DNA of 64,000 nucleotides from the NCBI GenBank assembly GCA_964291625.2, contig OZ220090.1:384001-448000 (forward strand). Reading direction: 5' to 3'. The notes under the pieces are model-generated. The model ran no database searches and had not been told where the DNA came from. It worked only from the letters and a program-made list of their open reading frames with translations. Positions 9,001-32,747 of this stretch are shown here, in pieces. Within the stretch, counting starts at the first letter, position 1; every line of letters begins with the position of its first letter. The DNA comes from Candidatus Latescibacterota bacterium (lineage in GTDB: Bacteria > Latescibacterota > UBA2968 > UBA8231). The position numbers and the translations under genes were made by a program.

Positions 9001-9293
9001 ATCCTTACTACGGGGTCAACGAGGCCGAGACCTCCCCGTACAGCCACTTCGTTACCTTCAGCCACCTGCCGCCGAGGGCGACGGTGCGGCTCTACGACCT
9101 GGCCGGCAACCTGGTGCGGGTTCTGGAGAAGAGCGATCCCGCCTCGTTCCTGCGCTGGGACCTCAACAACCACAACGGCCTGCCGGTGGCCAGCGGCATC
9201 TACCTCGCCCACCTGGAGTTGCCCGACATCGGCGCGAACCGGACCCTGAAACTGGTGATCGTGCAGGAGCAGCAGTTCCTGGAGAGCTACTGA
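6048..9293 (+). CDS. Large secreted protein with C-terminal T9SS type-A/FlgD-Ig-like sorting domain
   Basis: Signal peptide; acidic DxD-rich body; FN3-like YYFAVTAYN segment; C-terminal INVFPNPYY...VRLYDLAGNLVRVL...WDLNNHNGLPVASGIYL. Confidence 0.8.
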   Translation: MKKLITFVAAGALLGATGAVEGRGLQAYGAAKAAQDEARPGQQALINVNNMAMWFRSDGMTGHNPLNGNSGVTFPRSTGQVIYWDGLIWGGIVKDGDPQELRVGGQTYEIGTVPGGIVSRGVAEDPDDPGVRIYRIRRDFRTADLRLDVSEMQGIGLGEVTDGDVEELRAQYERDWQEWPWQKGAPYYDNDGSGSYDPDVDEPGVAGADQVAWFVVNDLAEGPVNSLYGSKPIGLEVQMLFWAYARTDALGDVIFKKFTVIYEGTSATPDTARIEDMYFAQWSDPDLGDFGDDFAGSDVDLSLGYVYNSSDNDHTYEFYGLAPPAVGYDFLQGPVVPVFLKDENGDTVLDEQGQPVLDTSSQAIFNFGLRPGFRNLPMTSFVYFAAGSAISDPDLGDYVGTQQWYNLLRGFQPQPDIDNPVPYTNPLTGEATLFTLDGDPTTAQGWNDGVPLPSGDRRIVLNTGPFEMALGDTQEVVVALLGGISTDRLRSVSKLKFSDQFVQDAYNSFFQVPSPPAGPDVRVTELEARVLLDWGWNDEAIRQTEADDGSGFLFEGYNLYQLPSAEAPLDQGTRLATYDLENGVAAVLGIALDDESGVILEVPLQVGSDFGVRRRAWVTHDALRGGPLVNGQEYYFAVTAYNRNTAEGAAVTTLESSPRTLICVPRKPPLGTRYGTEADDTLPVDHVGGSEGTVVVKVVDPTRTTGHSYQVEFGEEEGVVVWDLVNTTSGQTVLENQTDQAGSAFYLPDDGFEVMVSGPPLSIRSWEWLRDGEPNNDDRWLSGVNWGGSSFFGGADLGMNFFGSSITTGAEFVAVEIRFSNTNTQKAYRYLRGGDPNYGFQDFVDVPFTVWDIDSDPPRQLNAAFVENSESPAEDGTWLPVTFEEDLGGREYLFILKSDYSDESLAQYAESNIAATAADFDVLYAMWPVLRPGHENTELADGQALRFTPYRVNTSADVFRFEVPGTLFDSEQQKEDVALINVFPNPYYGVNEAETSPYSHFVTFSHLPPRATVRLYDLAGNLVRVLEKSDPASFLRWDLNNHNGLPVASGIYLAHLELPDIGANRTLKLVIVQEQQFLESY

Positions 9294-9304
9294 GGAGACC
9301 TGTC

Positions 9305-10330
9305 ATGACTCGCATCGAAAAGACCGTCCCCCTGCTGCTGGCGGGCCTTCTCTTCCTCGGAGGCACCCAGGCCGACGCGGCCGGGCGCGACCGCATCGGA
9401 ACCTCCGCGGCGCCGGAGCTGCTGATTCCGGTGGGGGCCCGCGGCATGGCCCTCGGGGGCGCTTCCATCGCCACCGCCTCAGGGGTCGACGCCCTGTACT
9501 GGAATCCCGCGGGACTCTTCCGGTCCGCCAACCGGGTCGATCTGATGGTGTCGACCATGGACTACATCGCCGGGATCCAGGTCAACTACCTGGCCGTGGG
9601 CAGCCACTTTTCCGGCCTCGGCAACCTCGCCGTGAGTATCAAGTCGCTGGACATCGGGGACATCCCGATCACCACCGAGGGCCAACCTGACGGGACGGGG
9701 GGCAGCTTCAGGCCGACCTTCTTCACCGTGGGTGTTCACTACGGCCGCGGTCTGACGGACCGCATCGGCCTGGGCACCACCCTTCACTACATCACCAACC
9801 GGGTCGACCGCGCCCAGGCGACGGGTCTCTCCTTCAGCGCCGGGCTCCAGTATCTCGACCTGGCCGACATCCCGGGGCTGGACCTGGGGGTGACGGTCAA
9901 GCACATCGGCCAGCGAATGAGGTTCGAGGGGCCGGGTCTGCTGAACCGGGGCGACCTGGGTACCCTGCGGCGCGGCCCTTCCTTCTACAACGTCGAGGCG
10001 AGCTCGGCCGATCTGCCCTCGATCTTCGAGCTGGGCCTGTCCTGGAACCGCCCGCTGCCGGGGATGGCGGAGCTGAACCTCAGCTCCGTCTTCCAGCACC
10101 ACAACTACAGCTACGACCAGTACAAGGTGGGAGTCGAGTACGAGTACAACGACTTCCTGGCCTTGCGAGGCGGTTTCGACTACGCCTCCGACGCCGAGGA
10201 CGACACCTACCTCTTCGGCAACAGCTTCGGCCTCGGGTTGGGCCTGGGCCCCGGAACCCTCGACTACTCCTACGGCGGCGTCGACCGCTTCGACGCGCTC
10301 CACACCTTCACCTTCCAGCTCGGCTTCTGA
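9305..10330 (+). CDS. PorV/PorQ-family (UPF0164-like) outer-membrane beta-barrel
   Basis: LLIPVGARGMALGGA...ALYWNPAGL N-terminal motif; amphipathic strands; C-terminal Phe. Confidence 0.85.
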   Translation: MTRIEKTVPLLLAGLLFLGGTQADAAGRDRIGTSAAPELLIPVGARGMALGGASIATASGVDALYWNPAGLFRSANRVDLMVSTMDYIAGIQVNYLAVGSHFSGLGNLAVSIKSLDIGDIPITTEGQPDGTGGSFRPTFFTVGVHYGRGLTDRIGLGTTLHYITNRVDRAQATGLSFSAGLQYLDLADIPGLDLGVTVKHIGQRMRFEGPGLLNRGDLGTLRRGPSFYNVEASSADLPSIFELGLSWNRPLPGMAELNLSSVFQHHNYSYDQYKVGVEYEYNDFLALRGGFDYASDAEDDTYLFGNSFGLGLGLGPGTLDYSYGGVDRFDALHTFTFQLGF

Positions 10331-16641: not shown

Positions 16642-16716
16642 GTGAGCAACGGCGACCTCAACTGGATCGCGAACTACATCTGGGGCATCGCCGACGACGT
16701 CCTGCGCGACCTCTAA
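16642..16716 (+). pseudogene. hsdM: N-terminal 24 codons of Type I R-M methyltransferase, cut by IS
   Basis: GTG...: MSNGDLNWIANYIWGIADDVLRDL*; the gene continues as YVRGKYRDVILPMTVLRR right after the IS at 18014. Confidence 0.9.
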
Positions 16717-18013
16717 GGAACTGTCCAGAAATAAGTGCTGTTCTTTTTGGTGGCAGGGTGTTACCTTTGATGCGTGGACACGGAGAGCACTCTGCGGGCG
16801 AAATACAAAGCCCTGGCGCCGGTGTTGAACGAGCGCACGGGACGGTTGTGGGCCGCGTCGGAGGCGCAAGCCCTGGGGCATGGCGGCATTGCCGTGGTGG
16901 CTCGGGCCACGGGCCTGTCGCGGACCCGGATCGCTCGCGGCCTGCAGGAACTGCAGTCGGACGCCCCGTTGGATCCCGGCCGGGTGCGTCGGCCGGGCGG
17001 CGGTCGCAAGCGACGCGTCGACACCGACGTGACGCTGTTGTCGGACCTCAACGCCCTGGTCGAACCGGTCACCGCCGGGGCGCCGGACGACAGCCCCTTG
17101 CGATGGACGTCGAAGAGCACCCGCAAGTTGGCGGCCGAGTTGCAGGCCCTGGGCCATTCGGTGAGTCCTGGCCTCGTCAGCGGACTGTTGCGCGAGCTTG
17201 GCTACACGCTGCAGGCCAATCGCAAGACGAGAGAAGGCACCCAACACCCGGATCGGGACGCCCAGTTTCACTATCTCAACGACCAGGTCCAAAGGGCCCA
17301 GGCTCAAGGCCAGCCGGTCATTTCGGTGGACACCAAGAAGAAGGAGCTGATCGGCGACTTCAAGAACGGGGGCCGGGCCTGGCGTCCGAAGGGCGAGCCG
17401 GAGCGCGTGAAGGTGCACGATTTCGTCATCCCCGCCCAGGGCAAGGCGATTCCCTACGGGGTCTACGACCTGAACCGCAACGAAGGCTGGGTCAGCGTCG
17501 GGGTCGACCACGACACGGCCGGTTTCGCGGTGAACGCCATCCGCAGCTGGTGGAAACGCATGGGGCGTCCGGCCTACCCGGCGGCCTCGCACCTGTGGAT
17601 CACGGCCGATGCGGGGGGCAGCAACGGCCCGAGACTGCGGCTGTGGAAATGGGAATTGCAGCGCTTCGCCGATCGCACGGGCCTGACGATCACCGTCTGT
17701 CACTATCCTCCGGGCACGAGCAAGTGGAACCGCATCGAGCATCGCCTGTTCTCCTATATCGCCAAGAACTGGCGAGGCCAGCCGTTGGTCAGTCTGGCCA
17801 CGGTGGTCAACCTGATCGGCCGGACGACCACGAAGAAAGGGCTTCGGGTACGCGCGGAGATCGACAAGCGATCGTATCCCAAAGCGGTGGTCGTCAAGGA
17901 CGAGCAAATGGAGCGCATCGATCTCTCGCCCCATGAGTTTCACGGGGACTGGAACTACACGATCCGGCCCACAGCGGCCAGCCGAAGTGAATCATCTGTT
18001 TCGTGACAAAGCC
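16716..18013 (+). mobile_element. ISAzo13-family insertion sequence (~1.3 kb) inserted in hsdM
   Basis: Imperfect terminal IRs (AGGAACTGTCCAGAAATAAGTG vs reverse complement AGGCTTTGTCACGAAACAGATG); short TA/CTA target duplication; removal restores GAC CTC TAC GTG CGC. Confidence 0.88.
16774..18006 (+). CDS. ISAzo13-family DDE transposase
   Basis: ISVDTKKKELIGDF, PYGVYD, ITADAGGSNG, HYPPGTSKWNRIEHRLFS, FHGDWNY; stop codon lies in the right IR. Confidence 0.93.
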   Translation: MDTESTLRAKYKALAPVLNERTGRLWAASEAQALGHGGIAVVARATGLSRTRIARGLQELQSDAPLDPGRVRRPGGGRKRRVDTDVTLLSDLNALVEPVTAGAPDDSPLRWTSKSTRKLAAELQALGHSVSPGLVSGLLRELGYTLQANRKTREGTQHPDRDAQFHYLNDQVQRAQAQGQPVISVDTKKKELIGDFKNGGRAWRPKGEPERVKVHDFVIPAQGKAIPYGVYDLNRNEGWVSVGVDHDTAGFAVNAIRSWWKRMGRPAYPAASHLWITADAGGSNGPRLRLWKWELQRFADRTGLTITVCHYPPGTSKWNRIEHRLFSYIAKNWRGQPLVSLATVVNLIGRTTTKKGLRVRAEIDKRSYPKAVVVKDEQMERIDLSPHEFHGDWNYTIRPTAASRSESSVS

Positions 18014-20379
18014 TACGTGCGCGGCAAGTACCGCGACGTGATCCTGCCCATGACCGTGCTGCGCCGGCTGGACGCGGTGCTGGAGGAGAGCAAGCAGGAG
18101 GTCCTGGGGATGAAGGCCACCCTCGACCAGGCCGGCGTCGTCGAGCAGGACGCCACCCTGCGGCAGACCGCCGGGCAGGCCTTCTACAACACCTCGAAGT
18201 TCACCCTGAAGGACCTGAGGGCCCGCGCCAACCGCCAGCAGCTCGAGGCCGACTTCCGGGCCTGGCTCGACGGGTTCTCGCCCAACGTGCAGGACATCCT
18301 CGACAACTTCGAGTTCCGCAACCAGATCCAGCGGCTCTCCCGGGCCGACGCCCTGGGCACGCTGATCGAGAAGCTGACCTCGCCCGACATCAACCTGAGC
18401 CCGGTCCCGGTCCACGGTTCCGACGGCACGGTCCGGCACCCCGGCCTGGACAACCACGGCATGGGCACGATCTTCGAGGAGCTGATCCGGCGCTTCAACG
18501 AGGAGAACAACGAGGAGGCGGGCGAGCACTGGACCCCCCGCGACGCCGTGACCCTGATGGCCAAGCTCGTCTTCCTGCCCGTGGCCGACCGGATCAAGTC
18601 CGGCACCTACCTGATCTACGACGGGGCCTGCGGCACCGGGGGCATGCTGACCGTGGCCGAAGACGTGCTCCAGCAGCTCGCCGCCGACCACGGCCGGCAG
18701 GTCTCCACCCATCTCTATGGCCAGGAGATCAATGCCGAGACCTACGCCATCTGCAAGGCCGACCTGCTGCTGAAGGGGGAAGGGGACGCGGCCGACAACA
18801 TCGTGGGCGGCCCCGAGCACTCGACCCTGGCCAACGACGCCTTCCCGTCCCGCGAGTTCGACTTCATGCTCTCCAATCCGCCCTACGGCAAGAGCTGGAA
18901 GACCGACCTGGAACGCATGGGCGGCAAGCGCGACATGCGCGACCCGCGCTTCGTGATCGAGCACGACGGCGATCCCGAGTACTCCCTGGTCACCCGCTCC
19001 AGCGACGGCCAGATGCTCTTCCTCGCCAACAAGCTCTCCAAGATGAAGCCGGGCGGCAGCCGCATCGCCGAGGTCCACAACGGCAGCTCCCTGTTCACCG
19101 GCGACGCCGGCCAGGGCGAGAGCAACATCCGCCGCTGGATCATCGAGAACGACTGGCTGGAGGCGATCGTCGCCCTGCCCCTCAACATGTTCTACAACAC
19201 CGGCATCGCCACCTACGTCTGGGTCCTCAGCAACCGCAAGCCGGAGCACCGCCGCGGCAAGGTGCAGCTGATCGACGCTACCGGGTGGCACCGGCCCCTG
19301 CGCAAGAACCTGGGCAAGAAGAACTGCGAGCTCGGCGAGGAGGACATCCAGCGTATCTGCGACACCTTTCTCGCCTTCGAGGAGAGCGAGCAGAGCAAGA
19401 TCTTCGACAACGCCGCCTTCGGCTACTGGAAGGTGACGGTCGAGCGGCCGCTGCGCCTCGAAGGAGCCGACCCCGACCGCGCCTGCAAGGCCGCCGAGAT
19501 CAAGAAGCTGAAGGAGAGCTGCGAGCGCAGCGAGAGTGCTCCGGCTGTCATCAGGAAGATCCACAAGCGAGGCACGGAAGCCGATCCGCTACGCGGCCGG
19601 TTCGAGGCGACGGTGAACGGCCGACACGCCGTGGTGGAGTACGAGCCGGACACCGCCCTGCGCGACACCGAGCAGATCCCGCTGCAGGAGGAGGGCGGCA
19701 TCGAGGCGTTCCTGCGGCGGGAGGTCCTGCCATATGCCCCCGACGCCTGGTACCAGCCGGACAGCGTGAGAATCGGCTACGAGATCAGCTTCACGCGGTA
19801 TTTCTACAAGCCCCAGCCGATGCGCACGCTGGAGGAGATCGGTGCGGACATCCTGGCGTTGGAGAGGGAGACGGAAGGGCTGCTCGACGATCTGCCCCTG
19901 GTGCGCGAACCGGCGACTGAGTACGGCAAGCCGCGCATCTACGTGGATACCTCGGTGATCGGCGGCTGCCATGACGATGAATTCCGCGAGCCATCGATGC
20001 AGTTGTTCGAGATGTTTCGCCAGGGAGAAGCCACGATGCTTCTCTCGGGCATCACTCTGGATGAACTAGCGGATGCTCCGCCCCCATCAGGCAGGCCACC
20101 AGCACCGTTCCCTCGGAACACAAGGAGCTCCTTGCCGTTTCAAGAGAGGCAGAAGAGCTCGCCGATGCCTACATCGCGGCTGGGGCCATGGGTGGGGCCA
20201 ACCTGAACGATGCGCTGCACATCGCTCTCGCGACCCTGGCCAAGGCCGATGTCCTGGTGAGCTGGAACTTCAGGCACATGGTGAACTGGCGGCGCATCAG
20301 GGCCTGCAACGAGGTCAATCGCAAGAATGGATACCATGCCATCGACATTCGCACCCCGGAGGAAACCGTCCATGACTGA
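18014..20379 (+). CDS. hsdM: Type I R-M N6-adenine methyltransferase (main body) fused to C-terminal PIN domain; 1-nt frameshift in C-run at ~20081-20085
   Basis: GEHWTPR, YDGACGTGGML, SNPPY, IGYEISFTRYFY; no stop before KPRIYVDTSVIGGCHDDEF; other frame continues ...DALHIALATLAKADVLVSWNFRHMVN to TGA 20379. Confidence 0.85.
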
Positions 20380-20587
20380 AGACCGTCCCACCAAGAAGAG
20401 ATTCGACTGCGTCAAGTTCATGCGCGAGGCCCGCGCCCGCAGTGCCGCAAAGACAGCCCACATGACGACTGGCGAACGGATTGAGTGGTTCAATACCCGT
20501 CGGTATGACGACCCCGTGCTGGAAGAAATGGCCGCGCGATTGCGCCAATCCATACAGGACAGGGCGACGGATAGCCGCGCAGACTGA
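20372..20587 (+). CDS. Small protein coupled to the PIN domain, putative antitoxin
   Basis: ATG overlaps the PIN stop, GGAGG RBS; MTEDRPTKKRFDCVKFMREARARS...MTTGERIEWF resembles the small partners found after this PIN subfamily. Confidence 0.65.
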   Translation: MTEDRPTKKRFDCVKFMREARARSAAKTAHMTTGERIEWFNTRRYDDPVLEEMAARLRQSIQDRATDSRAD

Positions 20588-20619
20588 CAGGCCGAGAAGC
20601 GATTCCACCGGAGGGAGCA

Positions 20620-20754
20620 ATGCCTTACGCGGAAGACTGGAACGACCCGAAGGCCATGTTGCGAGACGCCGTGCTCTGCCATTTCGACGACACCACGCCG
20701 CGACCCAGGTTGATTCGCCTTCATTCTGTCCGCGATGAGGTCCACTTGGCATGA
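20620..20754 (+). pseudogene. HicB-like antitoxin C-terminal fragment (family often mis-annotated '2-oxoisovalerate dehydrogenase')
   Basis: Manual translation MPYAEDWNDPKAMLRDAVLCHFDDTTPRPRLIRLHSVRDEVHLA*; RDAVxCHF...IRLHxVxDEV motif; TGA overlaps hsdS ATG. Confidence 0.55.
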
Positions 20755-22187
20755 AATCGCCAAACGTCCGGGAATTGAAGCCGTATCCGGAAATGAAGGA
20801 CTCTGGCGTCGAGTGGCTCGGGGAAGTGCCTGCGCATTGGGAGGTCAAACCCAACCGCACCCTCTTTGATGAGGTAAGGGAGCGAGGTCGACCAGAAGAA
20901 CCGATGCTATCAGTAACGATCAAACGGGGTGTCATACGCCAGAGTGACCTCCTGGAGAATGCATCAAAGAAGGATGGTTCAAACCTGGACAAATCGGCCT
21001 ACAAACTGGTCAAACCTGGGGACATCGCATACAACAAGATGAGAGCATGGCAAGGTGCGGTGGGGGCGTCTGAGTATCGAGGCATCGTTAGTCCTGCCTA
21101 CGTTGTTGAGCGTCCACGCAATGGAGTCAGCTCTGGCTTCCTCCATTACTTGCTTCGGATGCCCGGTTTCGCAAAAGAGGCCGAACGCTGGTCATACGGG
21201 ATTACATCGGACATGTGGAGCCTACGGCCTGAACACTTCAAGATGATCTACGCATGCCTTCCTCCTTCCATCGAACAAACCGCCATCGTCCGCTTCCTCG
21301 ACCACGCCGACCGACGCATCCGGCGCTACATCCGCGCCAAGCAGAAGCTGATTGCGCTGCTGGAGGAGCAGAAGCAGGCCATCATCCACCAAGCCGTTAT
21401 AGGCCAGATGGACCTCCGGACTGGACGCCCCTATCCGTCGTACAAGGACTCAGGCGTGGAGTGGTTAGGCGACTTGCCTGATCATTGGGAAGTGAGACGG
21501 ATAGGCAGTCTTGCCAAAGTAGGTAATGGCTCGACACCTGCTCGCAGTAATCAAGCATATTGGAGTGACGGTTCGTATCCCTGGCTGAACAGTTCCAGCG
21601 TGAACCAGGGTAGGATAACGGAGGCTGACCAGTTCGTAACAGAGACAGCGCTTCGAGAGTGCCATTTGCCGAGAGTCCCTGCGGACAGCGTGCTTGTTGG
21701 AATCACCGGGCAGGGAAAGACGCGGGGTATGGCCGCAGTGTTGGCGATTGAAGTGACGATCAACCAGCATTTGGCGTACATAACACCAAGAGCCGGCAGG
21801 GCGTGGTTGACCTCCGGCTATCTTCACATGTGCCTCACTGCGGCGTATACAGAGTTGCGCGCAATCAGCAGCGCTTCCGGCAGCACTAAGGGTGCCCTGA
21901 CATGCGAGGACATCAAGTCCTTCAGCGTTCCACTGCCTCCGATGGAGGAACAAGAAGCGGTGCTCTTGTCGATCAGGAGGAGTCTTACCCCTCTAGAGAA
22001 CTGTGTGGACCTAGCGCAGCGCCAGATTGAACTTCTGAAGGGGTACCGCGCCCGCCTCATCGCGGATGTCGTCACCGGCAAGCTCGATGTGCGCGGGGCG
22101 GCGGCTGGGTTGCCTTCGGAAGACATCCCCGGGGACCTCGATAAGCCAGCGGAAGAGGACGGAGTCGACAGAGAGATAGCCGTATGA
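20751..22187 (+). CDS. hsdS: Type I R-M specificity subunit
   Basis: Duplicated conserved region KDSGVEWLG-x-x-P-x-HWEV, two AT-richer TRDs, PPxxEQ motifs, LIADVVTGKLDVR end. Confidence 0.95.
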   Translation: MKSPNVRELKPYPEMKDSGVEWLGEVPAHWEVKPNRTLFDEVRERGRPEEPMLSVTIKRGVIRQSDLLENASKKDGSNLDKSAYKLVKPGDIAYNKMRAWQGAVGASEYRGIVSPAYVVERPRNGVSSGFLHYLLRMPGFAKEAERWSYGITSDMWSLRPEHFKMIYACLPPSIEQTAIVRFLDHADRRIRRYIRAKQKLIALLEEQKQAIIHQAVIGQMDLRTGRPYPSYKDSGVEWLGDLPDHWEVRRIGSLAKVGNGSTPARSNQAYWSDGSYPWLNSSSVNQGRITEADQFVTETALRECHLPRVPADSVLVGITGQGKTRGMAAVLAIEVTINQHLAYITPRAGRAWLTSGYLHMCLTAAYTELRAISSASGSTKGALTCEDIKSFSVPLPPMEEQEAVLLSIRRSLTPLENCVDLAQRQIELLKGYRARLIADVVTGKLDVRGAAAGLPSEDIPGDLDKPAEEDGVDREIAV

Positions 22188-22241
22188 CGCTCGGCCAGCC
22201 GAGCCATCCCTATTATGTTTCCATCGCAAAGGAGGCAACGC

Positions 22242-22759
22242 ATGACAGACGGGAGCAAGTGGCGTGCGGTGGAGAGCGTGCCCGGCCGACTCAGCGGGGC
22301 CTGGGTTTTCGGGGGCACTCGGCTGCCCGTGTCGGCCCTCTTCGGCAACTGGCGGAGGGCGCGACCGTCCACGACTTCATCGAGTGGTTCGGCGGGGTGG
22401 ACGAAGAACAGATGCGGGATGTAATGAGAGTCACCGTATCCATTGACGAAGAGACCTATCGGCTCGCCCGAGTCCGAGCGGCGGAATTGGACACCTCGGT
22501 GTCAGCCTTGGTACGGGGCTACCTGGAGAGCTTGGTCGAGGACGACGGCTCTGGCGCGACGGCGACCGGTAGCAGAGACGCAGAGAAAGAGGCCAAGCGT
22601 CGGCGTGAGTTGATGAGGCGGGTCTTCCAAGACTTCGACGCCCGTGGCATCGGCCTGAGGATGTCCGATAATAGCCAGGTCCGAGGCTCAGGCGGCGGCC
22701 GCCGCCGAAGTCCAAGACAACCGTGGGTGACCGCCATGGACTCTCTCCAGACTAACTAG
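22242..22759 (+). CDS. DUF433-like domain fused to ribbon-helix-helix antitoxin-like domain; 1-nt frameshift at ~22349
   Basis: PGRLSGAWVFGGTRLPVSALFGN/LAEGATVHDFIEWF (DUF433-like), then MRVTVSIDEETYRLARVRAAELDTSVSALVRGYL (RHH). Confidence 0.65.
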
Positions 22760-22763
22760 CGGA

Positions 22764-25700
22764 ATGCCCACCGACACCACCGAACGCGGCCTCGAGCGCC
22801 TTATCTGCACCACCCTGGCCGGCCATCCCTGTGACGCGCCTCCGGGCCCCACTGTAGGCGAGCCTCCAGCCCCCTACACCGGGTCCGGTTGGAGCGGCGG
22901 GAACTTCCACGACTACGACCGCGAGTACTGCGTCGACCTGGCCCAGCTCTCCGCCTTCCTGCGCGCCACCCAGCCGGAAGCATCCGAGTCCCTGAGCCTG
23001 TCCGAAACCGGCCCGACGCGCCGCCGGTTCCTGGCCCGGCTCCAGGGAGAGATCAGCAAGCGGGGCACCATCGACGTGCTGCGCCACGGCATCCGGCACG
23101 GGGCCCACGATCTCGACCTGTTTTACGGCACGCCCTCGGCCGACAACCCGGAGGCGCAGGAGCGCTTCGGGCAGAACCGCTTTACCGTCACCCGCCAGCT
23201 CCGCTACAGCCGCGACGAGACCCAGCGGGCCCTCGACATCGGGCTGTTCATCAACGGCCTGCCGGTCCTCACCTTCGAGCTGAAGAACAGCCTCACCAAG
23301 CAGACGGTCGACGACGCCGTCCAGCAGTACCAGCGCGACCGCAACCCGCGGGAGAGGCTGTTCGAACTGGGCCGCTGCGTTGCCCACTTCGCCGTGGACG
23401 AGAGCGAGGTCCGGTTCTGCACCCACCTCCGGGGCAAGGCCTCGTGGTTCCTGCCCTTCAACCGGGGCTGGAACGACGGCGCCGGCAACCCGCCCAACGC
23501 CAGCGGCATCAAGGCCGACTACCTGTGGCGCGAGGTGCTGACCCCGGAGAGTCTGACCGACATCCTCGAGAACTACGCCCAGGTGGTGGAGGCGAGGGAC
23601 GAGAAGACGGGCCGGCGGAGCCGGAGCCAGGTCTGGCCGCGCTACCACCAGCTCGACGTGGTGCGCCGCCTGCTCTCGGACGCGGGCGACCGCGGCGCCG
23701 GAGAGCGCTACCTGATCCAGCACTCGGCCGGCAGCGGCAAGAGCAACTCCATCGCCTGGCTGGCCCACCAGTTGATCGGGCTGACGCGGGACGGCGTTCC
23801 CGCCTTCGATTCGATCATCGTCGTCACCGACCGGGTGATCCTGGACCGGCAGATCCGCGACACGATCCGCCAGTACGCCCAAGTCTCGGCGACCGTGGGT
23901 CACGCCGACCGCTCCGGCGACCTGCGCCGGTTCATCGAGAGCGGCAAGAAGATCATCATCTCCACGGTGCAGAAGTTCCCCTTCATCCTCGACGAGATCG
24001 GCAACGAGCAGCGGGGGCGCCGCTTCGCCATCATCATCGACGAGGCCCACTCGAGCCAGGGAGGCCGCGCCAGCTCGGCCATGGCCCGGGCCCTCTCCGA
24101 GGCCGGGGAAGAGGAGGAGGACGAGACTTTCGAGGACCGCATCAACCGCCTCATGGAGTCGCGCAAGCTGCTGCCCAACGCCAGCTACTTCGCCTTTACC
24201 GCCACGCCGAAGAACAAGACCCTGGAGAGATCTTCGGCGCCCCCGACCCGCGGCCCGACGGGGCGGTCCGGCACCACGCCTTCCACAGCTACACCATGAA
24301 GCAGGCGATCCAGGAGGGCTTCATCCTCGACGTGCTCGCCCACTACATGCCGGTGGCCAGCTACTACAGGCTCGCCAAGACCGTGGAGGAGGACCCGGAG
24401 TTCGACGTGAGGAAGGCCCAGAAGAAGCTGCGCCGCTTCGTCGAGGGCAGCGGCCACGCCATCCGGCTCAAGGCCGAGATCATGGTCGACCACTTCCACG
24501 ACCAGGTCCTGGCCCAGGGCAAGGTCGGCGGCCAGGCCCGGGCCATGGTGGTCACCAACGGCGTCGAGCGGGCGATCCAGTACTACCACGCCATCCGCGA
24601 CTACCTCCTGGAGCGCAAGAGCCCCCACCGGGCGATCGTCGCCTTCTCGGGGGAGCACGACTTCGGCGGGGGCCGGGTGACCGAGGCCTCCCTGAACGAA
24701 TTCCCCTCCGGCCGGATCGCCGAGCAGTTCCAGGGGGAGCCATACCGCTTCCTGGTCTGCGCCGACAAGTTCCAGACCGGGTACGACGAGCCCCCCTGCT
24801 GCACACGATGTACGTCGACAAGACGCTCTCCGGTATCAAGGCGGTGCAGACCCTGTCCCGGCTCAACCGGGCCCACCCGAAGAAGCACGACGTCTTTGTC
24901 CTCGACTTCCTCAACGACGAGGAGATCATCAAGCACGCCTTCTCCGACTACTACCGGGCCACGATCCTGGCCGACGAGACCGACCCCGACAAGCTCCACG
25001 ACCTGCAGGCGGACCTGGACGGCGCCCAGGTATACGACCCCGCGCAGGTCGACGACCTGGTCGAGCGCTACCTCGGCGGCGCCGAGCGCGACCAGCTCGA
25101 CCCGATCCTCGACGCCTGCGTGGCGGTCTACCGGAGTCTGGACGAGGACCGGCAGGTCGACTTCAAGGGCCAGGCCAAGGGCTTCGTGCGGACCTACGCC
25201 TTCCTCTCCTCCGTGCTGCCCTACAGCGACGAGGGCTGGGAGAAGCGCTCGATCTTCCTGAACTTCCTGATCCCGAAGCTGCCGGCGCCCGAGGAGGAGG
25301 ACCTGTCGAAGGGGATCCTCGACGCCATCGACCTCGACAGCTACCGGGTGGAGAAGCAGGAGATGAGGAAGATCCTGCTGCCCGACGAGGACGCCGAGGT
25401 CGACCCGGTGCCGGCCGCCGGGGGAGGGCACCGCCCCGAGCAGGAGCTGGACCGGCTGTCGAACATCCTCAGGACCTTCAACGACCACTGGGGCACCGAC
25501 TGGGAGGACGGCGACCGTGTGGGACAGCTGATCACCGAGGTGATACCCTCCAAGGTGGCCGCCGACACCGCCTTCCGGAACGCCCGCCAGAACTCGGACC
25601 GCGAGAACACCCGCATCGAGGGCGACAAGGTGCTGATCCGGGTCATGAACTCGGTGATGAAGGACGACACCCAGTTGTTCAAGAAGTTCATGGACGACCC

Positions 25701-25767
25701 CGGATTCCAGCGCTGGATGGCGGATACGGTCTTCGGGCTTGCGTACGAGCAGGCCCGGGGCCCCTGA
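22764..25767 (+). CDS. hsdR: Type I R-M restriction subunit, two apparent frameshifts (~24226, ~24793)
   Basis: DIGLFINGLPVLTFELKN nuclease motif, QHSAGSGKS, DEAH, FTATP, KFQTGYDEP, QTLSRLNR across three frames; shifts at GAGAGA and CCCCCC. Confidence 0.9.
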
Positions 25768-25778
25768 ACAAGCTGCAC

Positions 25779-26594
25779 GTGGAGCCTGAGCGACAACAAG
25801 GGAGGTCTGCGGCTCCGGACCGTCCCACGCCTCGCGTGAAGGCGTTCTGCGTCGGCCAGGCGAAGTCGGGTACCGCCTCGATAGCAGGACTGCTGTCCGC
25901 CAACTACCGTGTGGCCCATGAGCCCGAACGGGCGGCAACGCTCGACCTGATCCTCCGGCACGGGCGCGGTGAACTCTCGGACATGGCCGTCCGGGAACGT
26001 CTGCGCGAGCGGGATGTCCGGCTCGACCTCGAGTACGACGTGGCATGGGCGAACCAATTCCTCATCCGTCACCTGCTGGTCGTCTTTCCCACCGCGAGAT
26101 TCATCGTGCTGATCCGAGACTGCTACACGTGGCTGCCGTCGATCACCGATCACCTCGCCCTCCGCGATGTGCCCGGTGACGTTCGCGAGTTCATGAAGTG
26201 GTGGTTCAGGCCGGACCAGTATCCGCACGGAGCCGCCGATCGCGTCCTCGAGGCCCGCGGGCTGTTCTCGGTATCGGCCTACCTTCACGCGTGGAACCGG
26301 CATGTCGACTCCTGCATCGGGTCGATTCCAGCCGAACGGCGGTTGGTGCTGCGGACCAACGAGCTCGGTGCCTCACATCGGCGCTTGGCGGGCTTCCTGG
26401 AGATACCCGTCAGCTCTCTCGACGCGGCCCAGGGCCACGTCAACCGCGGTACGCCGATGGAGCCAATAGCATCTGTCGTGGCCCCCGGATACATCGACGA
26501 GATGGTACACTCCATCTGCGGGGTCAACATGGCGCGTTACTTCCCCTCGATAGGAGACAGGCTGCCTCGACCATGCATGGAAGCGCCGCACTGA
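25779..26594 (+). CDS. Sulfotransferase-family P-loop protein
   Basis: 5'-PSB-like FCVGQAKSGTAS; 3'-PB-like FIVLIRDCYTWLPS; LAGFL...HVN C-terminal motif. Confidence 0.75.
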   Translation: MEPERQQGRSAAPDRPTPRVKAFCVGQAKSGTASIAGLLSANYRVAHEPERAATLDLILRHGRGELSDMAVRERLRERDVRLDLEYDVAWANQFLIRHLLVVFPTARFIVLIRDCYTWLPSITDHLALRDVPGDVREFMKWWFRPDQYPHGAADRVLEARGLFSVSAYLHAWNRHVDSCIGSIPAERRLVLRTNELGASHRRLAGFLEIPVSSLDAAQGHVNRGTPMEPIASVVAPGYIDEMVHSICGVNMARYFPSIGDRLPRPCMEAPH

Positions 26595-29058
26595 CCGCTC
26601 AGGTCCGCGCACGGGTGGATGCGGACGAAGAGCTCGATGTCGAGGCCGGACTGTTGGTTCTTGGGGCACTCGAGGGGGACGAGGCGCTGGATCGTGCCCT
26701 GTCGGAGGATGCTGACGCTGCGGAAGCACGACCGGATGCAGAGGCCGATGCGGTCCAGGCCCCTGCGAGACGTGCGTACCTCGACAAGATCTCGGTCCAG
26801 GGGTTTCGCGGTATCGGCTCCGGTTGCGACCTGAAGATCACCCCCGGCCCCGGCCTTACGCTGGTTGTGGGGCGCAACGGCAGCGGCAAGTCGAGCTTCG
26901 CGGAAGCTCTGGAGCTCTTGCTGACCGGCAAGAACCGGCGCTGGGAGGACCGGTCGGCGGTCTGGAAGGAGGGTTGGCGGAACCTGCACTGGTCCGGATC
27001 CGGCGGAGATCGCGGCGACCTTTTCGGTCGAAGAGCGGCCACAGCCGCTTGCCGCAAGACGCGTGTGGGTGGAGGGTGCTGATCTGGATGCCGGCACCGA
27101 TGAGGTGGATGGTGTCCAGGGAGGCCAACTCCCGCGCCGCGGCCCTGGGCTGGGACGAGGCGATCGTCAGTCCTATCGTCCCGTTTCTGCCCTACAACGA
27201 ACTGGGATCGATTCCTGACTCCCGGCCTACGGAGCTCTACGACATGATGTCGGCGGCCCTGGGTCTGGAGGCGCTGGTGGAGGCTCGCCAGCGGTTGCGT
27301 CAGCGGAGACTTGACCGTGGCAAGCGGATTCGTACCGCGGAGGACGAACGGCGAGAGTGGTTCTCCCAGGTCGAGGGACTCGACGATGAACGGGCGCGGA
27401 CCTGCGCCCAGGCAATCAAGAGAGCCAAGTCGACCACATGGGATCTCGACGCGGTGGAACTGATCCTGGAGGGAGCACTCGAACCGGAGGGCGAGGGAGT
27501 AATCGCCCTGCTGGGTGAACTCGCCACCCTCCCCGTTCCGGGCGCCGAAGAAGTGCAGTTGGCGGCAGACGAGTTGCGGGCGGCTACAGAGGCTGTGAGG
27601 TCCGCCGAACGGACCGATGCCGGCCGCGCCCGGCAGACCGCCGACCTGCTCGACCGCGCACTTGTGGTGCACGCCGCACATGGAGATCAACCATGCCCGG
27701 TCTGCGGCTCCGGGGAGTTGACCGTTGAGTGGCGGTCGCGTACGGAGGCCGAAGTGGCACGCTTGCGTACAGAGGCGGGTACGGCGGACCAGGCTCAGAA
27801 GACGCTTGGCAGGGCTCGCCGTGCCGCCCAGGCCCTGGTGGCCGCGCCGCCGGAGATTCTGGGTCGTTCGGACACGGCGGGTCTCGACGCGACCGCCCTG
27901 CAGGAGGCCTGGAGAGGTTGGGCGGGTCTCCGGGAAGCAGCGGATGGCAGCCTGATCGAGCACCTGGCAGAGGAACACCGCAAGCTCGCCGCCACCGCGG
28001 ACTCGTTCCGGGCGCAGGCCGCCGCCGAGTTGGCGCGCCTGGAGGAAGCCTGGCGTCCCCTGGTCGATACCCTGCGCTCCTGGCTGCCAACCGCACGCGA
28101 CGCGGTGCAGGCTTCCCGGGTGGTCCCGTATCTGAGTAGCGCGGAGAAGTGGCTCAACTCGGAGACCGACCTGATCCGGGCCGAACGGTTCGGTCCCATT
28201 GCGAAGCGGGCCTCGGAGGTGTGGGAGACTCTGAGACAGAACAGCAGCGTGACGCTGGATCACCTCAAGCTCGAGGGTTCGGCGACCCAGCGTCATCTCG
28301 TCTTGGACGTCAGCGTCGACGGAACCGACGGGCAGGCCCTCGGAGTGATGAGCCAGGGCGAGATACACGCCCTTGCTCTCAGTCTGTTCCTGCCACGGGT
28401 GCTGCTGCCGGAATCCCCCTTCGGATTCGTCGTGATCGACGATCCGGTGCAGGCGATGGACCCGGGGAAAGTCGACGGTCTGGCGCGCGTGCTCTCCATG
28501 GTGTCCCAGGAGCGGCAGGTCGTCGTCTTCACCCATGACGAACGACTGCCCGAGTCGGTTCGTCGGCTGCAGATTCCGGCACAGGTGGTCGAAGTCACGC
28601 GCCAATCCGGCTCGCAGGTGGCGTGCCGGACCATCGGCGACCCGGTTGCGCAGTACCTGGCCGATGCCCGGGCGCTGCAGCACACCGACGACCTTCCGAC
28701 GGAAGCCGCGGCGCGGGCTTTGCCCCAGTTCTGCCGCCTGGCCATCGAAGCGGCGTGCACGGAGGTCGTCCGCCGCCGACGCATCGGGCGCGGTGAGCCG
28801 CACTCCGACACGGACGAGGTGTTGAACGACGCCCGCACGCTGACCCAGAAACTCGCCCTCGCTCTGTTCGACGACGTCGAGCGCGGAGGAGAGGTGCTGG
28901 CCCGTCTCAACAGGTCCGACTCCAGATGGGCCGATGCAGTCCGGTGGGCGAACCGGGGTGTGCACGGAGCTGCGGGGGGCACGCCGGACCTGGCGTCGAT
29001 GGTCGGGTCCACCGAGCGACTGGCAGGATGGCTCGTCATGCTCGATGGCAACCCATGA
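26573..29058 (+). CDS. SMC/Rad50-like ABC ATPase with coiled coil, CPVC zinc hook and C-terminal HEPN-like domain (RloC-like); several indels at ~27000-27185
   Basis: ISVQGFRGIG; Walker A GRNGSGKS; CPVC at 27694; signature SQGE; Walker B/D-loop VVIDDPVQAMD; FTHD; C-terminal CRLAIE...RWANRGVH. Confidence 0.8.
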
Positions 29059-29432
29059 CTCCCGTCGAGATCATCGATGCGGCCGACGCGCTGGTAGAAC
29101 CCCGCAACAGCAGCCGGGTACAAGGATGGCCGAGGATTGCAGCAGTGCTCTGCCGACATGCGATCGAGGAGGCCCTTCGGCAATACTGGTCCCTGCGCGA
29201 GCCCGGCCTGGACCGCTGCAGCGGACGCGCACAACTGCTGTGCCTCACCGTCTACCTGAGAGACCGCGACCTAGGCCGCGAGACTTTCTCCGCGTGGTCC
29301 GATCTGAGCCGTGCCTGTCACCACCACGCATACGAGCTCGCTCCGACAGCCGAGGAATTGCGGAACTTGCTGGACGTGGCACGGCGGTTCACGTGCGAGG
29401 TTTCGCGCCAGATTGCTGCCCACCGGACGTGA
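29055..29432 (+). CDS. Stand-alone HEPN-like protein
   Basis: ATGA overlap with the ATPase; all-helical 125 aa with CRHAIEEAL and R-x4-H motif RACHHH. Confidence 0.7.
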   Translation: MTPVEIIDAADALVEPRNSSRVQGWPRIAAVLCRHAIEEALRQYWSLREPGLDRCSGRAQLLCLTVYLRDRDLGRETFSAWSDLSRACHHHAYELAPTAEELRNLLDVARRFTCEVSRQIAAHRT

Positions 29433-29587
29433 CTCCCATACGCCTGTCGCCGTGATCCGAGCGGCTCCTCGGCTGATCCACCGCCGCCCCCGCTGGCCCC
29501 CTGCGGTGGCAACGTCGACTGGGCCGACCTCGACGACTGACGGATCGTCGTCGCCTACGAGCAGGCCGGGGCCTCTGAACAGGTGTC

Positions 29588-29616
29588 TTGACACGATCGA
29601 TTTATTGTTGTATATC
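29588..29616 (+). promoter_or_regulatory. Putative sigma70 promoter TTGACA-17bp-TATATC
   Basis: Perfect -35, 17-bp spacer, AT-rich; 19 nt between -10 and ATG 29636; -10 flanked by GTTG/CAAC. Confidence 0.55.
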
Positions 29617-29635
29617 CAACTGTCTGAGAGTGGAT

Positions 29636-30808
29636 ATGCAACAATTCGTGGATCGTCCCCGTTTGCTGGCCGCAGTCTCGGAGGGCCTTCGAGAGGCGCC
29701 GGTCGTCGCCCTGCTGGGCGCTCGGCAGGTTGGCAAGACCACGCTGGCCCGGCAGGTCGCGGCGGCGTGGCCGGGACCGACGAGGGTCCTCGATCTCGAA
29801 GTGGCCGCTGTCCGGGAGGGGCTCGCCCAGACGCCGGAGGCCGTCCTTCGCCATGGCGAAGGCCTGGTAGTCATCGACGAGGTGCAGCGGATGCCGGCCC
29901 TCTTCGAGATCCTGCGCCCGATCTGCGACGATCCGTCGCGCAAGGGGGTCTTTCTCCTGTTGGGCAGCGCTTCGTGGGATCTGATCCGGGGTGTCTCGGA
30001 AACCCTCGCGGGCCGGGTGCTGTTCGTCGATGTCGCCGGCTTCTCGCTCTCGGAGGTCGGTGCCGATCATCAACGTCGGCTGTGGATGCGAGGCGGTTTT
30101 CCGCGCGCCTGGCTGGCTTCGTCCTCCGCCGCATGGGGGCGATGGATGCAGGCCTTCACGCAGACATTCCTGGAGCGCGACATCCCCGGCCTGGGATCAC
30201 GCGTGTCGCCGGCCGCGATCGGTCGGTTCTGGCGGATGCTCGCCCACTCTCACGGTCAGGTCTGGAACGCGTCCTCGCTGGCGCGTTCCATGGACGCCAC
30301 CCCCACCTCCGTGAACCGCTACCGCGACCTGCTGGCCGGCACGTTCATGATTCGCGTCCTGCCGCCGTGGTTCGAGAACCTCGGCAAGCGGCTGGTGAAG
30401 TCGCCGAAGGTGTATCTGCGCGACAGCGGCATCCTGCACTTCCTGCTCGGGCTCGAGGATGCCGACGAGCTGCCGATGCATCCACGGTACGGCGCTAGCT
30501 GGGAAGGATTCGCCCTGGAACAGACCCTGGTCGCCCTCGGTGCTCGCGATGCCTTCTTTTACGCCACCCAGCGCGGCGCGGAGCTGGACCTGATGCTGCT
30601 GCGAAGGGGCAGGCGCTGGGGCTTCGAGTTCAAGTGCACCGACGCGCCCCGCACGACGAAGGCGATGCACATTGCCATCGAAGACCTCGGCCTGGAGCAC
30701 CTGTGGGTCGTCTACCCCGGCCGTCTCCGCTACCCGATCACGGACGGAATTACCGCACTGCCGCTGGCCGAAGTGGACGAGACCACCATCCGTACCTGCC
30801 CGGCGTAA
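29636..30808 (+). CDS. AAA_14 + DUF4143 ATP-binding protein with C-terminal PD-(D/E)xK-like domain
   Basis: GARQVGKT, IDEVQ, LLGSAS, ETLAGR, RGGFP, KSPKVYLRDSG, ELDL...FEFK. Confidence 0.9.
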   Translation: MQQFVDRPRLLAAVSEGLREAPVVALLGARQVGKTTLARQVAAAWPGPTRVLDLEVAAVREGLAQTPEAVLRHGEGLVVIDEVQRMPALFEILRPICDDPSRKGVFLLLGSASWDLIRGVSETLAGRVLFVDVAGFSLSEVGADHQRRLWMRGGFPRAWLASSSAAWGRWMQAFTQTFLERDIPGLGSRVSPAAIGRFWRMLAHSHGQVWNASSLARSMDATPTSVNRYRDLLAGTFMIRVLPPWFENLGKRLVKSPKVYLRDSGILHFLLGLEDADELPMHPRYGASWEGFALEQTLVALGARDAFFYATQRGAELDLMLLRRGRRWGFEFKCTDAPRTTKAMHIAIEDLGLEHLWVVYPGRLRYPITDGITALPLAEVDETTIRTCPA

Positions 30809-30812
30809 CCTC

Positions 30813-32747
30813 GTGCCTGCATTGCGCGCCCGCGTCGAGCCCACCACACGGTGCCGCCGATGGCGTCCTCGAGGATCGGGGCCACCGACGGATCGCCTCC
30901 TCCTCCTCGGCCTCCTGATCACCGCCGCCTCCGCGGCCCCCCTGGCCGCCGCCGTCGACCTGGCCGACCTCCACGACTGGCGGATCGTCGTCGCGCCCGG
31001 CGCCATCGCCTCCGAGGAGTACGCGGCCGAGGAGCTCCGCGCGCACCTGGTCCTCGCCGGCGGCCCCGAGCTGCAGATCGTCTCCGCGGCTGAAGGCCCC
31101 GGCGGCCACTTCTTCATCGGCCCGGACGCCGCCAGCCAGAGTCCCGCCGGCTTCGATCCCGCCGACTACGGCCCCGAGGACCTGCGCATCGTCGTGCGGC
31201 CCGGGGCCATCGTCGTGGCCGGCGGCCGGCCGCGGGGGACCCTCTACGGGGTCTACACCTTCCTCGAGGATTACCTCGGCGTGCGCTTCGTCACCGCCGA
31301 CCACACCCACGTGCCGCCCCTGGGCCCGGAGCGCCGTATCGAGGCCGTGGACCGGGTCTACCGGCCGCCCCTGGAGTGGCGCTGGTCCGACTTCGAGAGC
31401 AACTACGCGCGCCCGGACTTCGCCGCCCGGCTGCGGCTGAACGCGGGGCGGGTCGAGGCCCTGCCCCCGGGCAGCGACGACTGGAGCCTGGTGGGCCGCT
31501 ACGGCGGCCGCTCTCCCGTGCACTTGGTGGAGCACTCCTTCAACGCCCTGCTGCCGCCCTCGGAGTACGCCGTCGACCATCCCGAGTACTACTGCCTCTT
31601 CGAGGGCGAGCGCTGGGCCCACCGCCGCTACGAGGACGGCCGCTTCCACGAGGACCTGCAGCCGTGCATGACCCACCCCGAGGTCCTGCGCCTGATCACC
31701 CGCGCGGCCCTGGGGCAGCTGGCGGCCCGCCCCCGCCAGATGGACGTCAGCGTCGGCCAGAACGACGGCAGCGTCTGGTGCCAGTGCCCGTCGTGCCGGG
31801 CGATCAACGAGCGCGAGGGCACGCCCATGGGCTCGCTGCTGACGCTGGTGAACGCGGTCGCCGACGAGGCGGCCGCCGCCCACCCGGGGCGGCTGGTCTC
31901 GACCCTGGCCTACGCCTACAGCGCGCCGCCGCCGCGCTCCCTGAGGCCGCGGGAGAACGTCCTGATCACTTGGTGCAGCATCGACGCCTGCTTCATCCAC
32001 GCCCTCGACGACCCGGACTGCCCGGACAACGCCGCCCAGTACGCCCAGCTGGAGGCCTGGTCCCGGATCGCGCCGAACCTGCACGTGTGGGACTACTACA
32101 TGAACCACGACCGCCGCGGGTTCCAGCTGCCCCTGCCCAACCTGCGGTGGGTCGACCGCAACGTGCGCGCCGAGGTCAGGCTCGGCGTCCGGGGCCTGTT
32201 CACCCAGGCCTTCAGCAGCTCCCACGGCAACGAGTTCGAGGGCCTGCGCAACTACCTGCTGAGCCGGCTCATGTGGGACCCCTCCCTCGACGGGCGGACG
32301 CTCATGGACGAGTGGCTGGACCTCCACTACGGCCCGGCGGCCCCGCCCATGCGGCGCTGGATCGACCGCCTCCACGACCGGTCCCAGGCCAGCGGCCTGC
32401 ACCGCCACAGCCTCGGGGGCCGCTACGACGAGTACGGCCTCGACGAGTCGGACGCCATCGCCGGCCTGGAGGCGGTGGAGGAGGCGATGCGGCTGGCCGA
32501 CAGCGACGCGGTGAGGCGCCGCGTCGGGAAGGCCTCCGTCTGGGCCTGGCGGGCCACCCTCGAGCCGGTGTGGTACGCCACGGAAGGGGTCGACCTCGAC
32601 CCGGGGCAGGCGGAGGAGCTGCGCGCCCGGGCGAAGCGGTTCTTCGAGCTGTGCCGCGAGCACGACGTGCGGCGCACCGCCTCCGGCAGCTGGTTCGCCA
32701 TCGAGAAGGCGGAGGCGCGGGTGCGCGCCGCCATCGGAGACTGGTAG
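30813..32747 (+). CDS. DUF4838 domain-containing secreted protein (putative glycoside hydrolase); start uncertain
   Basis: Signal-like LLLLGLLITAASAAPLAA; GGRPRGTLYGVYTFLEDYLGVRF; HPEYY; QPCMTHPEV; CQCPSC; TLAY; VWDY. Confidence 0.8.
   Translation: MPALRARVEPTTRCRRWRPRGSGPPTDRLLLLGLLITAASAAPLAAAVDLADLHDWRIVVAPGAIASEEYAAEELRAHLVLAGGPELQIVSAAEGPGGHFFIGPDAASQSPAGFDPADYGPEDLRIVVRPGAIVVAGGRPRGTLYGVYTFLEDYLGVRFVTADHTHVPPLGPERRIEAVDRVYRPPLEWRWSDFESNYARPDFAARLRLNAGRVEALPPGSDDWSLVGRYGGRSPVHLVEHSFNALLPPSEYAVDHPEYYCLFEGERWAHRRYEDGRFHEDLQPCMTHPEVLRLITRAALGQLAARPRQMDVSVGQNDGSVWCQCPSCRAINEREGTPMGSLLTLVNAVADEAAAAHPGRLVSTLAYAYSAPPPRSLRPRENVLITWCSIDACFIHALDDPDCPDNAAQYAQLEAWSRIAPNLHVWDYYMNHDRRGFQLPLPNLRWVDRNVRAEVRLGVRGLFTQAFSSSHGNEFEGLRNYLLSRLMWDPSLDGRTLMDEWLDLHYGPAAPPMRRWIDRLHDRSQASGLHRHSLGGRYDEYGLDESDAIAGLEAVEEAMRLADSDAVRRRVGKASVWAWRATLEPVWYATEGVDLDPGQAEELRARAKRFFELCREHDVRRTASGSWFAIEKAEARVRAAIGDW

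Follow-up and report, generated by a model that had tools for sequence, protein, structure and literature searches.

The 64,000-nucleotide (nt) stretch of a Candidatus Latescibacterota bacterium analysed here (contig OZ220090.1 of assembly GCA_964291625.2, positions 384,001 to 448,000; hereafter the window) carries at 26573–29432 of its forward strand a copy, broken as assembled, of a two-gene operon. The first gene encodes a predicted ABC ATPase with a zinc-hook insert and a helical C-terminal tail, and the second encodes a small free protein with a predicted HEPN fold. Sequence comparison identifies this ATPase with its HEPN partner as a widespread, unnamed two-gene module. By analogy with known systems, we infer a hetero-HEPN ribonuclease (RNase) switch that the ATPase would trigger in response to stress or phage, a reading that we hold tentatively and with a little less than even confidence.

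A conserved pair of ATPase and partner genes

Distribution of the pair was assessed by a locus scan with one genome per species. Among the at least 600 pattern matches listed, at least 519 encode a relative, and 79 distinct ATPase loci from these matches were kept for neighbourhood analysis. Record titles assign the loci to Gemmatimonadota, Acidobacteriota, Latescibacterota, Spirochaetia, Chloroflexota, Dormiibacterota, Myxococcota and many Actinomycetota, including Streptomyces, Nocardia, Pseudonocardia, Actinoplanes and Blastococcus. A profile search placed a partner homologue immediately after the ATPase gene, in the same orientation, in 75 of the 79 loci, with expect values (E) of 1e-65 to 1e-25 plus one homologue cut at a contig end. 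Three of the four loci without a partner (L016, L019 and L035) stop at a contig edge and the fourth (L048) is broken. In 48 of the 75 loci, the partner could start at a codon that overlaps the ATPase stop by 4 nt; the partner start overlaps the ATPase stop in some way in 60, and the two genes overlap or lie within 30 nt of each other in 72. Clustering of all coding-like open reading frames (ORFs) showed that any third gene is shared by 11 of the 79 loci at most. The module is considered to consist of two genes because the partner is present so regularly and no other gene approaches its frequency. A preliminary description of this DNA had proposed a candidate two-gene anti-phage system. The pairing is confirmed, usually with overlapping stop and start codons, and no PADLOC system fits it.

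Longer proteins that match these families are few. P0323, from a search for ATPase–partner fusions, and P0281, from a search of representatives, hold both domains and look like frame-shifted read-through. P0325, also from the fusion search, carries transposase families according to precomputed Pfam annotations. In P0322 (856 aa), a partner-type domain at residues 58–172 lies N-terminal to NERD and UvrD-like helicase domains; its cluster has two member sequences on two contigs, and it represents either a different conflict-type architecture or a two-gene read-through.

In the window, the ATPase gene occupies 26573–29058 on the forward strand, from a start at 26573 (MHGSAALT) that agrees with its relatives to a stop at 29056–29058. 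Its first segment (26573–26998, frame 2) encodes an N-terminal helical extension of ~65 aa and the start of the ABC head, including the Walker A motif GRNGSGKS (26870–26893), and matches Pfam models AAA_23 (4e-13), AAA_15 and SMC_N. A disrupted stretch at 26999–27183 separates it from the main segment (27184–29058, frame 1), which has SMC_N and AAA_21 matches and encodes a coiled-coil-like insert with the predicted zinc hook CPVC (27694–27705), the signature SQGE (28351–28362), the Walker B motif VVIDDP (28429–28446) and the H-loop FTHD (28528–28539). The C-terminal 140 aa (28636–29055) form a helical tail that is probably HEPN-like according to the tail alignment, hhalign comparison with the partner family and an Atlas model of a homologue. 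The partner gene (29055–29432, forward strand) encodes a free protein of 125 aa with a predicted HEPN fold, and its start shares ATGA at 29055–29058 with the ATPase stop. Every motif listed in the preliminary description was recovered in its place, as was the ATGA overlap with a 125-aa ORF.

The ATPase belongs to a large family, and its features lie far outside what chance would give. Of 8000 proteins scored in a search with the 639-aa main piece as query, 3153 reached E<=0.001. The top 120 relatives are mostly 803–843 aa long and share 44–89% identity with the query over 93–100% of its length; 13 of them are shorter forms of 364–738 aa, and intact relatives have ~825 aa. The ABC motifs (Walker A, signature, Walker B/D-loop and H-loop) are invariant in all 21 aligned full-length relatives, as are the hook C372-P-x-C375 and residues C719, R720, E724 and H796 of the tail. 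The ABC head is split by an insert of ~345 residues that is rich in A, E, R and L and poor in proline, with CPVC at its apex and matched Pro/Gly breaks ~55–62 residues on either side of the hook. These features fit an antiparallel arm, an assignment based on composition and not a direct coiled-coil prediction. Of the long coiled coil with central CPVC that had been described earlier, the hook is thus an invariant element and the coiled coil is a reading of composition and symmetric breaks. Pfam model Rad50_zn_hook matches relative P0084 weakly (E 0.015), and the zinc hook is a predicted one. The RloC-like architecture recognized in the preliminary description, with ABC head, zinc-hook insert and helical C-terminal domain, is present in all its parts.

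Family models place the ATPase among ABC/SMC proteins in general. Pfam provides generic models only (SMC_N, AAA_23, AAA_15 and AAA_21). AAA_13 (PF13166), which is the PrrC/RloC model, has no match in the window ATPase pieces and stays below its cut-off of 36 bits in all four full-length relatives compared (21.1, 23.9, 29.2 and 35.8 bits); these sub-threshold matches reach model positions 443–573 only, which correspond to the signature and Walker B region. The RecF, Rad50 and SMC models of NCBIfam match weakly, far under their cut-offs, and the closest solved sequences in a PDB sequence search are SMC (6.6e-10) and Rad50 (5e-9) heads. PADLOC matches to LmuB (2e-14 and 2e-11), PDC-S06 and mad3 are partial and cover the head only; for PDC-S06 the match spans model positions 622–694 of 851 (E 2.7e-11). 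Membership of Lamassu or PDC-S06 is rejected because the matches are only partial. The ATPase also occurs in three plasmid records, two of which are Streptomyces plasmids, and the pair on plasmid pM92 is annotated as ‘AAA family ATPase’ and ‘hypothetical protein’.

HEPN-like domains and their conserved residues

The free partner is the better characterized of the two helical domains. A word-indexed search found 52 close relatives, and an exhaustive profile search extended the family to 1349 representatives (50% identity, E<=0.001), of which 967 reach 1e-10; the best 150 of the 1349 matches are nearly all 91–165 aa long. An AlphaFold2 model based on a 28-sequence alignment has five helices, a predicted local distance difference test score (pLDDT) of 87.6 and a predicted template-modelling score (pTM) of 0.83. 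Foldseek comparison of this model with the PDB gives HEPN structures as the closest full-domain matches, with template-modelling (TM) scores of 0.63–0.72 and probabilities of ~1. They include sacsin HEPN 3o10, Thermus 1wwp and 1ufb, Sulfolobus 2q00 (0.70/0.72), Archaeoglobus 2hsb (0.69) and the HepT toxins 7bxo (0.65), 5yep and 6m6u (0.63–0.65). The Atlas model of partner homologue P0153 agrees, with TM 0.68/0.72 to a cluster whose members all carry PF05168 (HEPN). On these models a HEPN fold is accepted for the partner, as had been proposed in the preliminary description. A DUF6047 match to the partner (E 0.01) was treated as noise. Apart from that match, no Pfam, NCBIfam or PADLOC model covers the partner or the ATPase tail, and PDB sequence-profile searches with both returned only chance-level matches to designed helical proteins.

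Profile and model comparisons provide a lead that the ATPase tail is probably a diverged, remote and HEPN-like paralogue of the partner. An end-to-end hhalign comparison of tail and partner aligns 112 columns (P 9e-4), and larger alignments of 76 tails and 74 partners give 115 columns (P 2e-4, probability 46%). The partner and tail profiles cross-match each other's first helices in two read-through proteins. In the Atlas model of P0040, a protein 60% identical to the window protein, residues 695–835 have TM scores of 0.59/0.68 (by query/by row) with a cluster in which 38% of members have PF05168 (HEPN), and 0.60/0.47 and 0.61/0.34 with two DUF3644 clusters. DUF3644 has been described as a HEPN domain (10.1101/2024.01.29.577857) and is treated as such by Anantharaman et al. 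and Payne et al.

Residue counts over the same 76 tails and 74 partners indicate which positions matter in each domain. Tail residues C33, R34 and E38, which lie in CRLAIE (28732–28749), and H110, which is the last residue of RWANRGVH (28942–28965, with the His at 28963–28965), occur in all 76 tails; G108 occurs in 71 and N106 in 60. The Arg of RWANRGVH is found in 31 tails (Lys in 20), and the position of an Arg before the invariant His is −7 in 31 tails, −6 in two and −5 in none. In the partner, where CRHAIEE lies at 29151–29171 and RACHHH at 29310–29327, E38, W81 and H89 are present in all 74 sequences and R34 in 73. R34, R27, Q60, S85 and Y93 are all conserved at >=90%, R86 occurs in only 43 partners and H91 in 50. 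Therefore, the canonical Rx4-6H motif is not the conserved feature of these domains, and its assignment as their conserved catalytic motif is ruled out. RWANRGVH and RACHHH, which had been put forward as HEPN motifs in the window, are not family features.

What both domains conserve is an Arg-x3-Glu on an early helix and one later His (H110 in the tail and H89 in the partner). By sequence, this combination resembles the anticodon-nuclease triad of PrrC and RloC. The published triad is Arg-X3-Glu-X36-52-His (R320/E324/H356 in PrrC and R692/E696/H737 in RloC), and each of its residues is essential for anticodon nuclease activity (PMC2610378). The Glu–His spacing of the partner, x50, lies inside the published range.

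The window copy and the surroundings of the pair

DNA alignment with intact loci L001 and L005 locates five insertions in the window ATPase gene, of 1, 1, 3, 2 and 1 nt at 26999, 27125, 27135–27137, 27170–27171 and 27183, respectively. Indels had been noted earlier at 27000–27185, and the alignment resolves them as these five insertions. In three-frame translation the reading frame follows the path 2 to 0 to 1 to 0 to 1. The extra bases mask positions that are invariant in relatives, such as Y-R-P-F-L, and the conserved VTYRPFL reappears only if they are skipped; R200 and P201 are invariant in relatives. The remainder of the window ATPase is clean, with ~89% protein identity to an intact relative of 826 aa. 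As assembled, the window copy is unable to make a full-length ATPase. Because the ATPase carries these five small insertions, we infer that the module is inactive in this window unless the insertions are assembly errors.

For this locus, consensus or assembly errors in a strain-variable island would leave the gene intact in the organism, an explanation to which we assign slightly less than half of our belief. The five insertions are confined to 185 nt of a 2.5-kb gene that is otherwise clean and close to its intact relative, and ignoring them brings back the invariant residues. The neighbouring hsdR gene is likewise split over three frames, and long genes outside the island read through. On the other hand, most of the insertions lie outside homopolymer runs, the same gene has been truly inactivated in relatives by a Mutator-family transposase (L003) and by split ORFs (L015 and L048), and frame breaks limited to defence genes fit island decay too. 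The L003 case is a 1.4-kb insertion at 8383–9821 that encodes a Mutator-family transposase (2.6e-35) and splits the ATPase gene. The window hsdR (22764–25767) is broken as assembled into 22764–24299, a middle piece to ~24800 and 24808–25767.

The pair lies in the window between a type I restriction-modification (R-M) cassette and a PDC-S01 ATPase. Gene order is an ISAzo13-type transposase (16771–18003; Pfam DDE_Tnp_ISAZ013, 1.7e-140), hsdM, short ORFs, hsdS, an RHH-like ORF and the frame-broken hsdR, followed by a sulfotransferase-like gene, the pair, a DUF4143 ATPase, DUF4838 and serS. The sulfotransferase-like gene (25779–26594, forward strand; Pfam Sulfotransfer_4, 8.6e-9) overlaps the ATPase start by 22 nt at its end. 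It is not conserved across loci and probably reflects the lineage without belonging to the module, because it is found beside the pair only in close relatives L001 and L003; in L003 the gene is called at 6237–7019, and in L001 the homologous DNA is present with no gene called.

Comparison with these two relatives outlines the variable parts of the region. Flanks in L001 have 94–95% nucleotide identity with the window, and the sulfotransferase region, the pair and serS are kept. L003 keeps hsdR, the sulfotransferase gene and the pair, with an insertion sequence (IS) within the ATPase. Window positions 16662–25730 (~9 kb, with the IS and the type I R-M genes hsdM, hsdS and hsdR) look like a mobile insertion adjoining the pair, because they are missing from the otherwise 94–95% identical L001. 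G+C content is 0.57–0.59 at 20001–22000, over hsdS and its flanks, compared to 0.65–0.74 elsewhere, which is consistent with a foreign origin of the R-M cassette. The hsdM ORF (17933–20379, 757 aa) ends in ~100 residues that are foreign to the methylase, with no stop before them, and overlaps a 63-aa ORF at 20188–20379. Neither tail piece has a Pfam match, and the run-on may reflect a further frame problem or fusion with a small gene. Downstream, the DUF4143/AAA_14 ATPase (29588–30808) matches PADLOC candidate PDC-S01 at 2.5e-84. As it is missing at the same position in both L001 (window 29556–30915) and L003, this gene represents a second variable insertion adjoining the pair. From these presence-absence differences it follows that the location of the pair is variable.

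For the family as a whole, the called genes closest to the pair, two on either side, were scanned with PADLOC models at E<=1e-12 (280 proteins from 76 loci). Matches occur in 29 of the 280 neighbours and cover 21 loci. Among the clear cases, the pair of L052 (3416–14225) lies inside a BREX locus, with PglX and an ATPase-TOPRIM protein (HEC-04) upstream and PglZ and BrxL downstream. The pair adjoins GmrSD-like type IV enzymes in L067, L071, L078, L079 and L070, and such neighbours occur in Streptomyces and Blastococcus. Further clear defence neighbours are a SngC/BrxH-like helicase (L045), type IV restriction endonucleases (L022 and L072), PtuA (L015) and HsdR (L003). Matches are regarded as weak for four of the 21 loci, with ankyrin, methyltransferase-like and UvrA-like proteins (L007, L013 and L025), and L059. 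Pfam annotation of the first 148 neighbours adds transposase, integrase, PIN, RES and HNH genes along with many ordinary metabolic genes. An association of the pair with defence genes is suggestive; 21 of 76 is a raw count without a matched control and not a measured enrichment. Linkage to R-M genes is a feature of the lineage of the window and L003 (one of the 76 loci) and not of the family. In three Actinomycetota loci (L004 4277–6901, L012 9821–12439 and L017 5573–8521), the next gene after the pair encodes an adenylate/guanylate cyclase and TPR protein of 873–983 aa, with an AAA_22 match in L012 only.

Possible function and relation to known systems

As a general rule, HEPN RNases act as dimers. 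In the reading that we favour, the ATPase tail and the co-translated free partner would pair as a hetero-HEPN dimer with a composite site. The ATPase and its zinc hook would sense DNA ends, damage or loss of restriction, as in RloC, and an ATP-driven rearrangement would then switch on cleavage of RNA, probably tRNA. Such cleavage would stop translation and abort the infection. A narrower proposal, which we place on the unlikely side, is that the module is a two-component RloC in which the nuclease site would be completed only when the free HEPN subunit docks on a half-competent fused tail. Loading or exchange of this subunit, and not an internal conformational change, would then be the on/off switch. 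If true, this would be the first ATPase-gated hetero-HEPN RNase.

Several results weigh against the hetero-HEPN reading. The canonical Rx4-6H motif is unconserved in both domains, and no HEPN-family or RloC/PrrC sequence model matches tail or partner. The tail fold is taken from a stored model of a homologue, and Foldseek E values for the partner are only 0.07–0.24, with most other listed rows being pre-60S ribosomal chains at query-based TM of ~0.3. The invariant His of the tail lies 71 residues past the Glu, outside the 36–52 published for RloC; a nearer His, 17 residues past the Glu, is present in 51 of the 76 tails. Equivalence of the histidines in the two domains is not established, with hhalign placing partner H89 opposite a tail Asn and the tail His opposite partner Tyr93. 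None of the four longer proteins from the fusion search is a clean stable fusion, and they provide no argument for contact between the two proteins. No PADLOC neighbour is found in 55 of the 76 loci, many neighbours are ordinary metabolic genes, and the ATPase has no match in 50,697 phage records.

The main rival to the favoured reading gives the partner the opposite role, as an inhibitor or antitoxin-like decoy on the dimer face of the tail, which the ATPase would release on a trigger to let two tails pair. We consider this unlikely, even with several observations that suit it. The partner is nearly always a separate polypeptide, with no stable fusion among the four longer matches, and co-translation from overlapping stop and start codons suits a stoichiometric inhibitor. 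Known HEPN toxins are restrained by a partner, as in RnlA–RnlB and HepT–MntA, and repeated inactivation of the ATPase (L003 has an IS, L015 and L048 have frameshifts and the window has insertions) fits a toxic gene. Against such a decoy, the polar residues of the partner are invariant across phyla, which would be more usual for an active site or a ligand-binding site than for an antitoxin that evolves fast. The partner also lies downstream of the ATPase, unlike most type II pairs, in which the antitoxin is upstream (PMC11869752).

It is more doubtful still that neither domain is a nuclease and that tail and partner serve as helical adaptors of an SMC/Rad50-like DNA-handling complex, in a system that would act on DNA or recruit an effector encoded elsewhere. 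The missing Rx4-6H motif would suit such a role, since a non-catalytic role in RNA binding has been proposed for HEPN domains without the motif (PMC3710099). In PADLOC and the PDB, the ATPase is most like LmuB, SMC and Rad50 heads, and RefSeq labels a Streptomyces plasmid copy as ‘AAA family ATPase’ with double-strand break repair as its Gene Ontology (GO) term, assigned solely by electronic inference. However, invariant Arg, Glu and His residues occur in both domains in a pattern like that of the PrrC/RloC triad, the pair has no conserved neighbour that encodes a nuclease or other effector, and a patchy distribution with varying context is unlike that of housekeeping repair genes. 

RloC and PrrC, each a single protein, are the classic cases in which a sensor of DNA state is coupled to a suicide enzyme that cuts tRNA. 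The family described here appears to keep the sensor of RloC with its effector split into fused and free HEPN-like parts. It is common in phyla of soils and sediments (Actinomycetota, including Streptomyces and Nocardia, Acidobacteriota, Gemmatimonadota, Dormiibacterota, Chloroflexota and Myxococcota), which are under-represented in defence screens. If the two-component RloC proposal is true, the module would represent a large unnamed immune family, which counts at least 519 loci in genomes that represent species and whose partners form 1349 clusters at 50% identity. An active module would bring a sizeable unnamed system into defence catalogues and would offer a tractable test of how a HEPN site is gated by partner exchange.

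Among known systems, RloC from Geobacillus kaustophilus (804 aa) is like the module ATPase in size and order of parts, with an ABC head split by a CxxC-hook insert. Both have a helical C-terminal domain with an invariant Arg-x3-Glu and a downstream His, and both are occasionally linked to R-M genes. RloC is described as self-contained with an internal switch, whereas the module devotes a second gene to a free paralogous domain, and Glu–His spacing is 71 in the module tail compared to 36–52 in RloC. Comparison with RloC was by family model and published triad, and the four full-length module relatives compared fall below the cut-off of AAA_13. By sequence model and by its departure from a single-polypeptide design, the module is RloC-like without being a member of the RloC family. 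The earlier statement that this is not classical single-gene RloC or PrrC agrees with this. PrrC, which resides in the type Ic R-M system EcoprrI, likewise combines an ABC ATPase with a C-terminal nuclease that has an Arg-Glu-His triad, and placement of the pair directly after the hsdR region in the window and L003 is PrrC-like. In contrast to the module, PrrC has no coiled coil or zinc hook and is silenced by its R-M enzyme, whereas the module is R-M-linked in one of 76 loci and the window.

In PADLOC and PDB sequence comparisons, the module ATPase matches heads of Lamassu LmuB, SMC and Rad50 best, but only in part. Among the 79 loci, the pair has no conserved LmuA- or LmuC-type neighbour, which agrees with the exclusion of Lamassu in the preliminary description, and LmuB is not known to have a C-terminal HEPN-like tail. 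HepT of MntA–HepT and minimal HEPN proteins of archaea and Thermus are the nearest solved folds to the partner (TM 0.63–0.72) at 10–17% identity. They use Rx4-6H, which is unconserved in the module, and their partners are nucleotidyltransferases, whereas that of the module is an ATPase. In Cas13, two unlike HEPN domains form one composite site, and a site of this kind is what we propose for the module. The Cas13 domains are on one chain and are RNA-guided, whereas in the module one HEPN-like domain is fused to the ATPase and one is free. The composite concept of two HEPN domains in Cas13 also appears in 10.64898/2025.12.03.690598. No description of a zinc-hook ABC ATPase–HEPN protein with a second HEPN gene was found in full-text literature searches; the classification of Krishnan et al. 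2020 may list the clade. We read the module as a two-component variant of RloC-type ATPase–HEPN systems that corresponds to no PADLOC 2.0 system.

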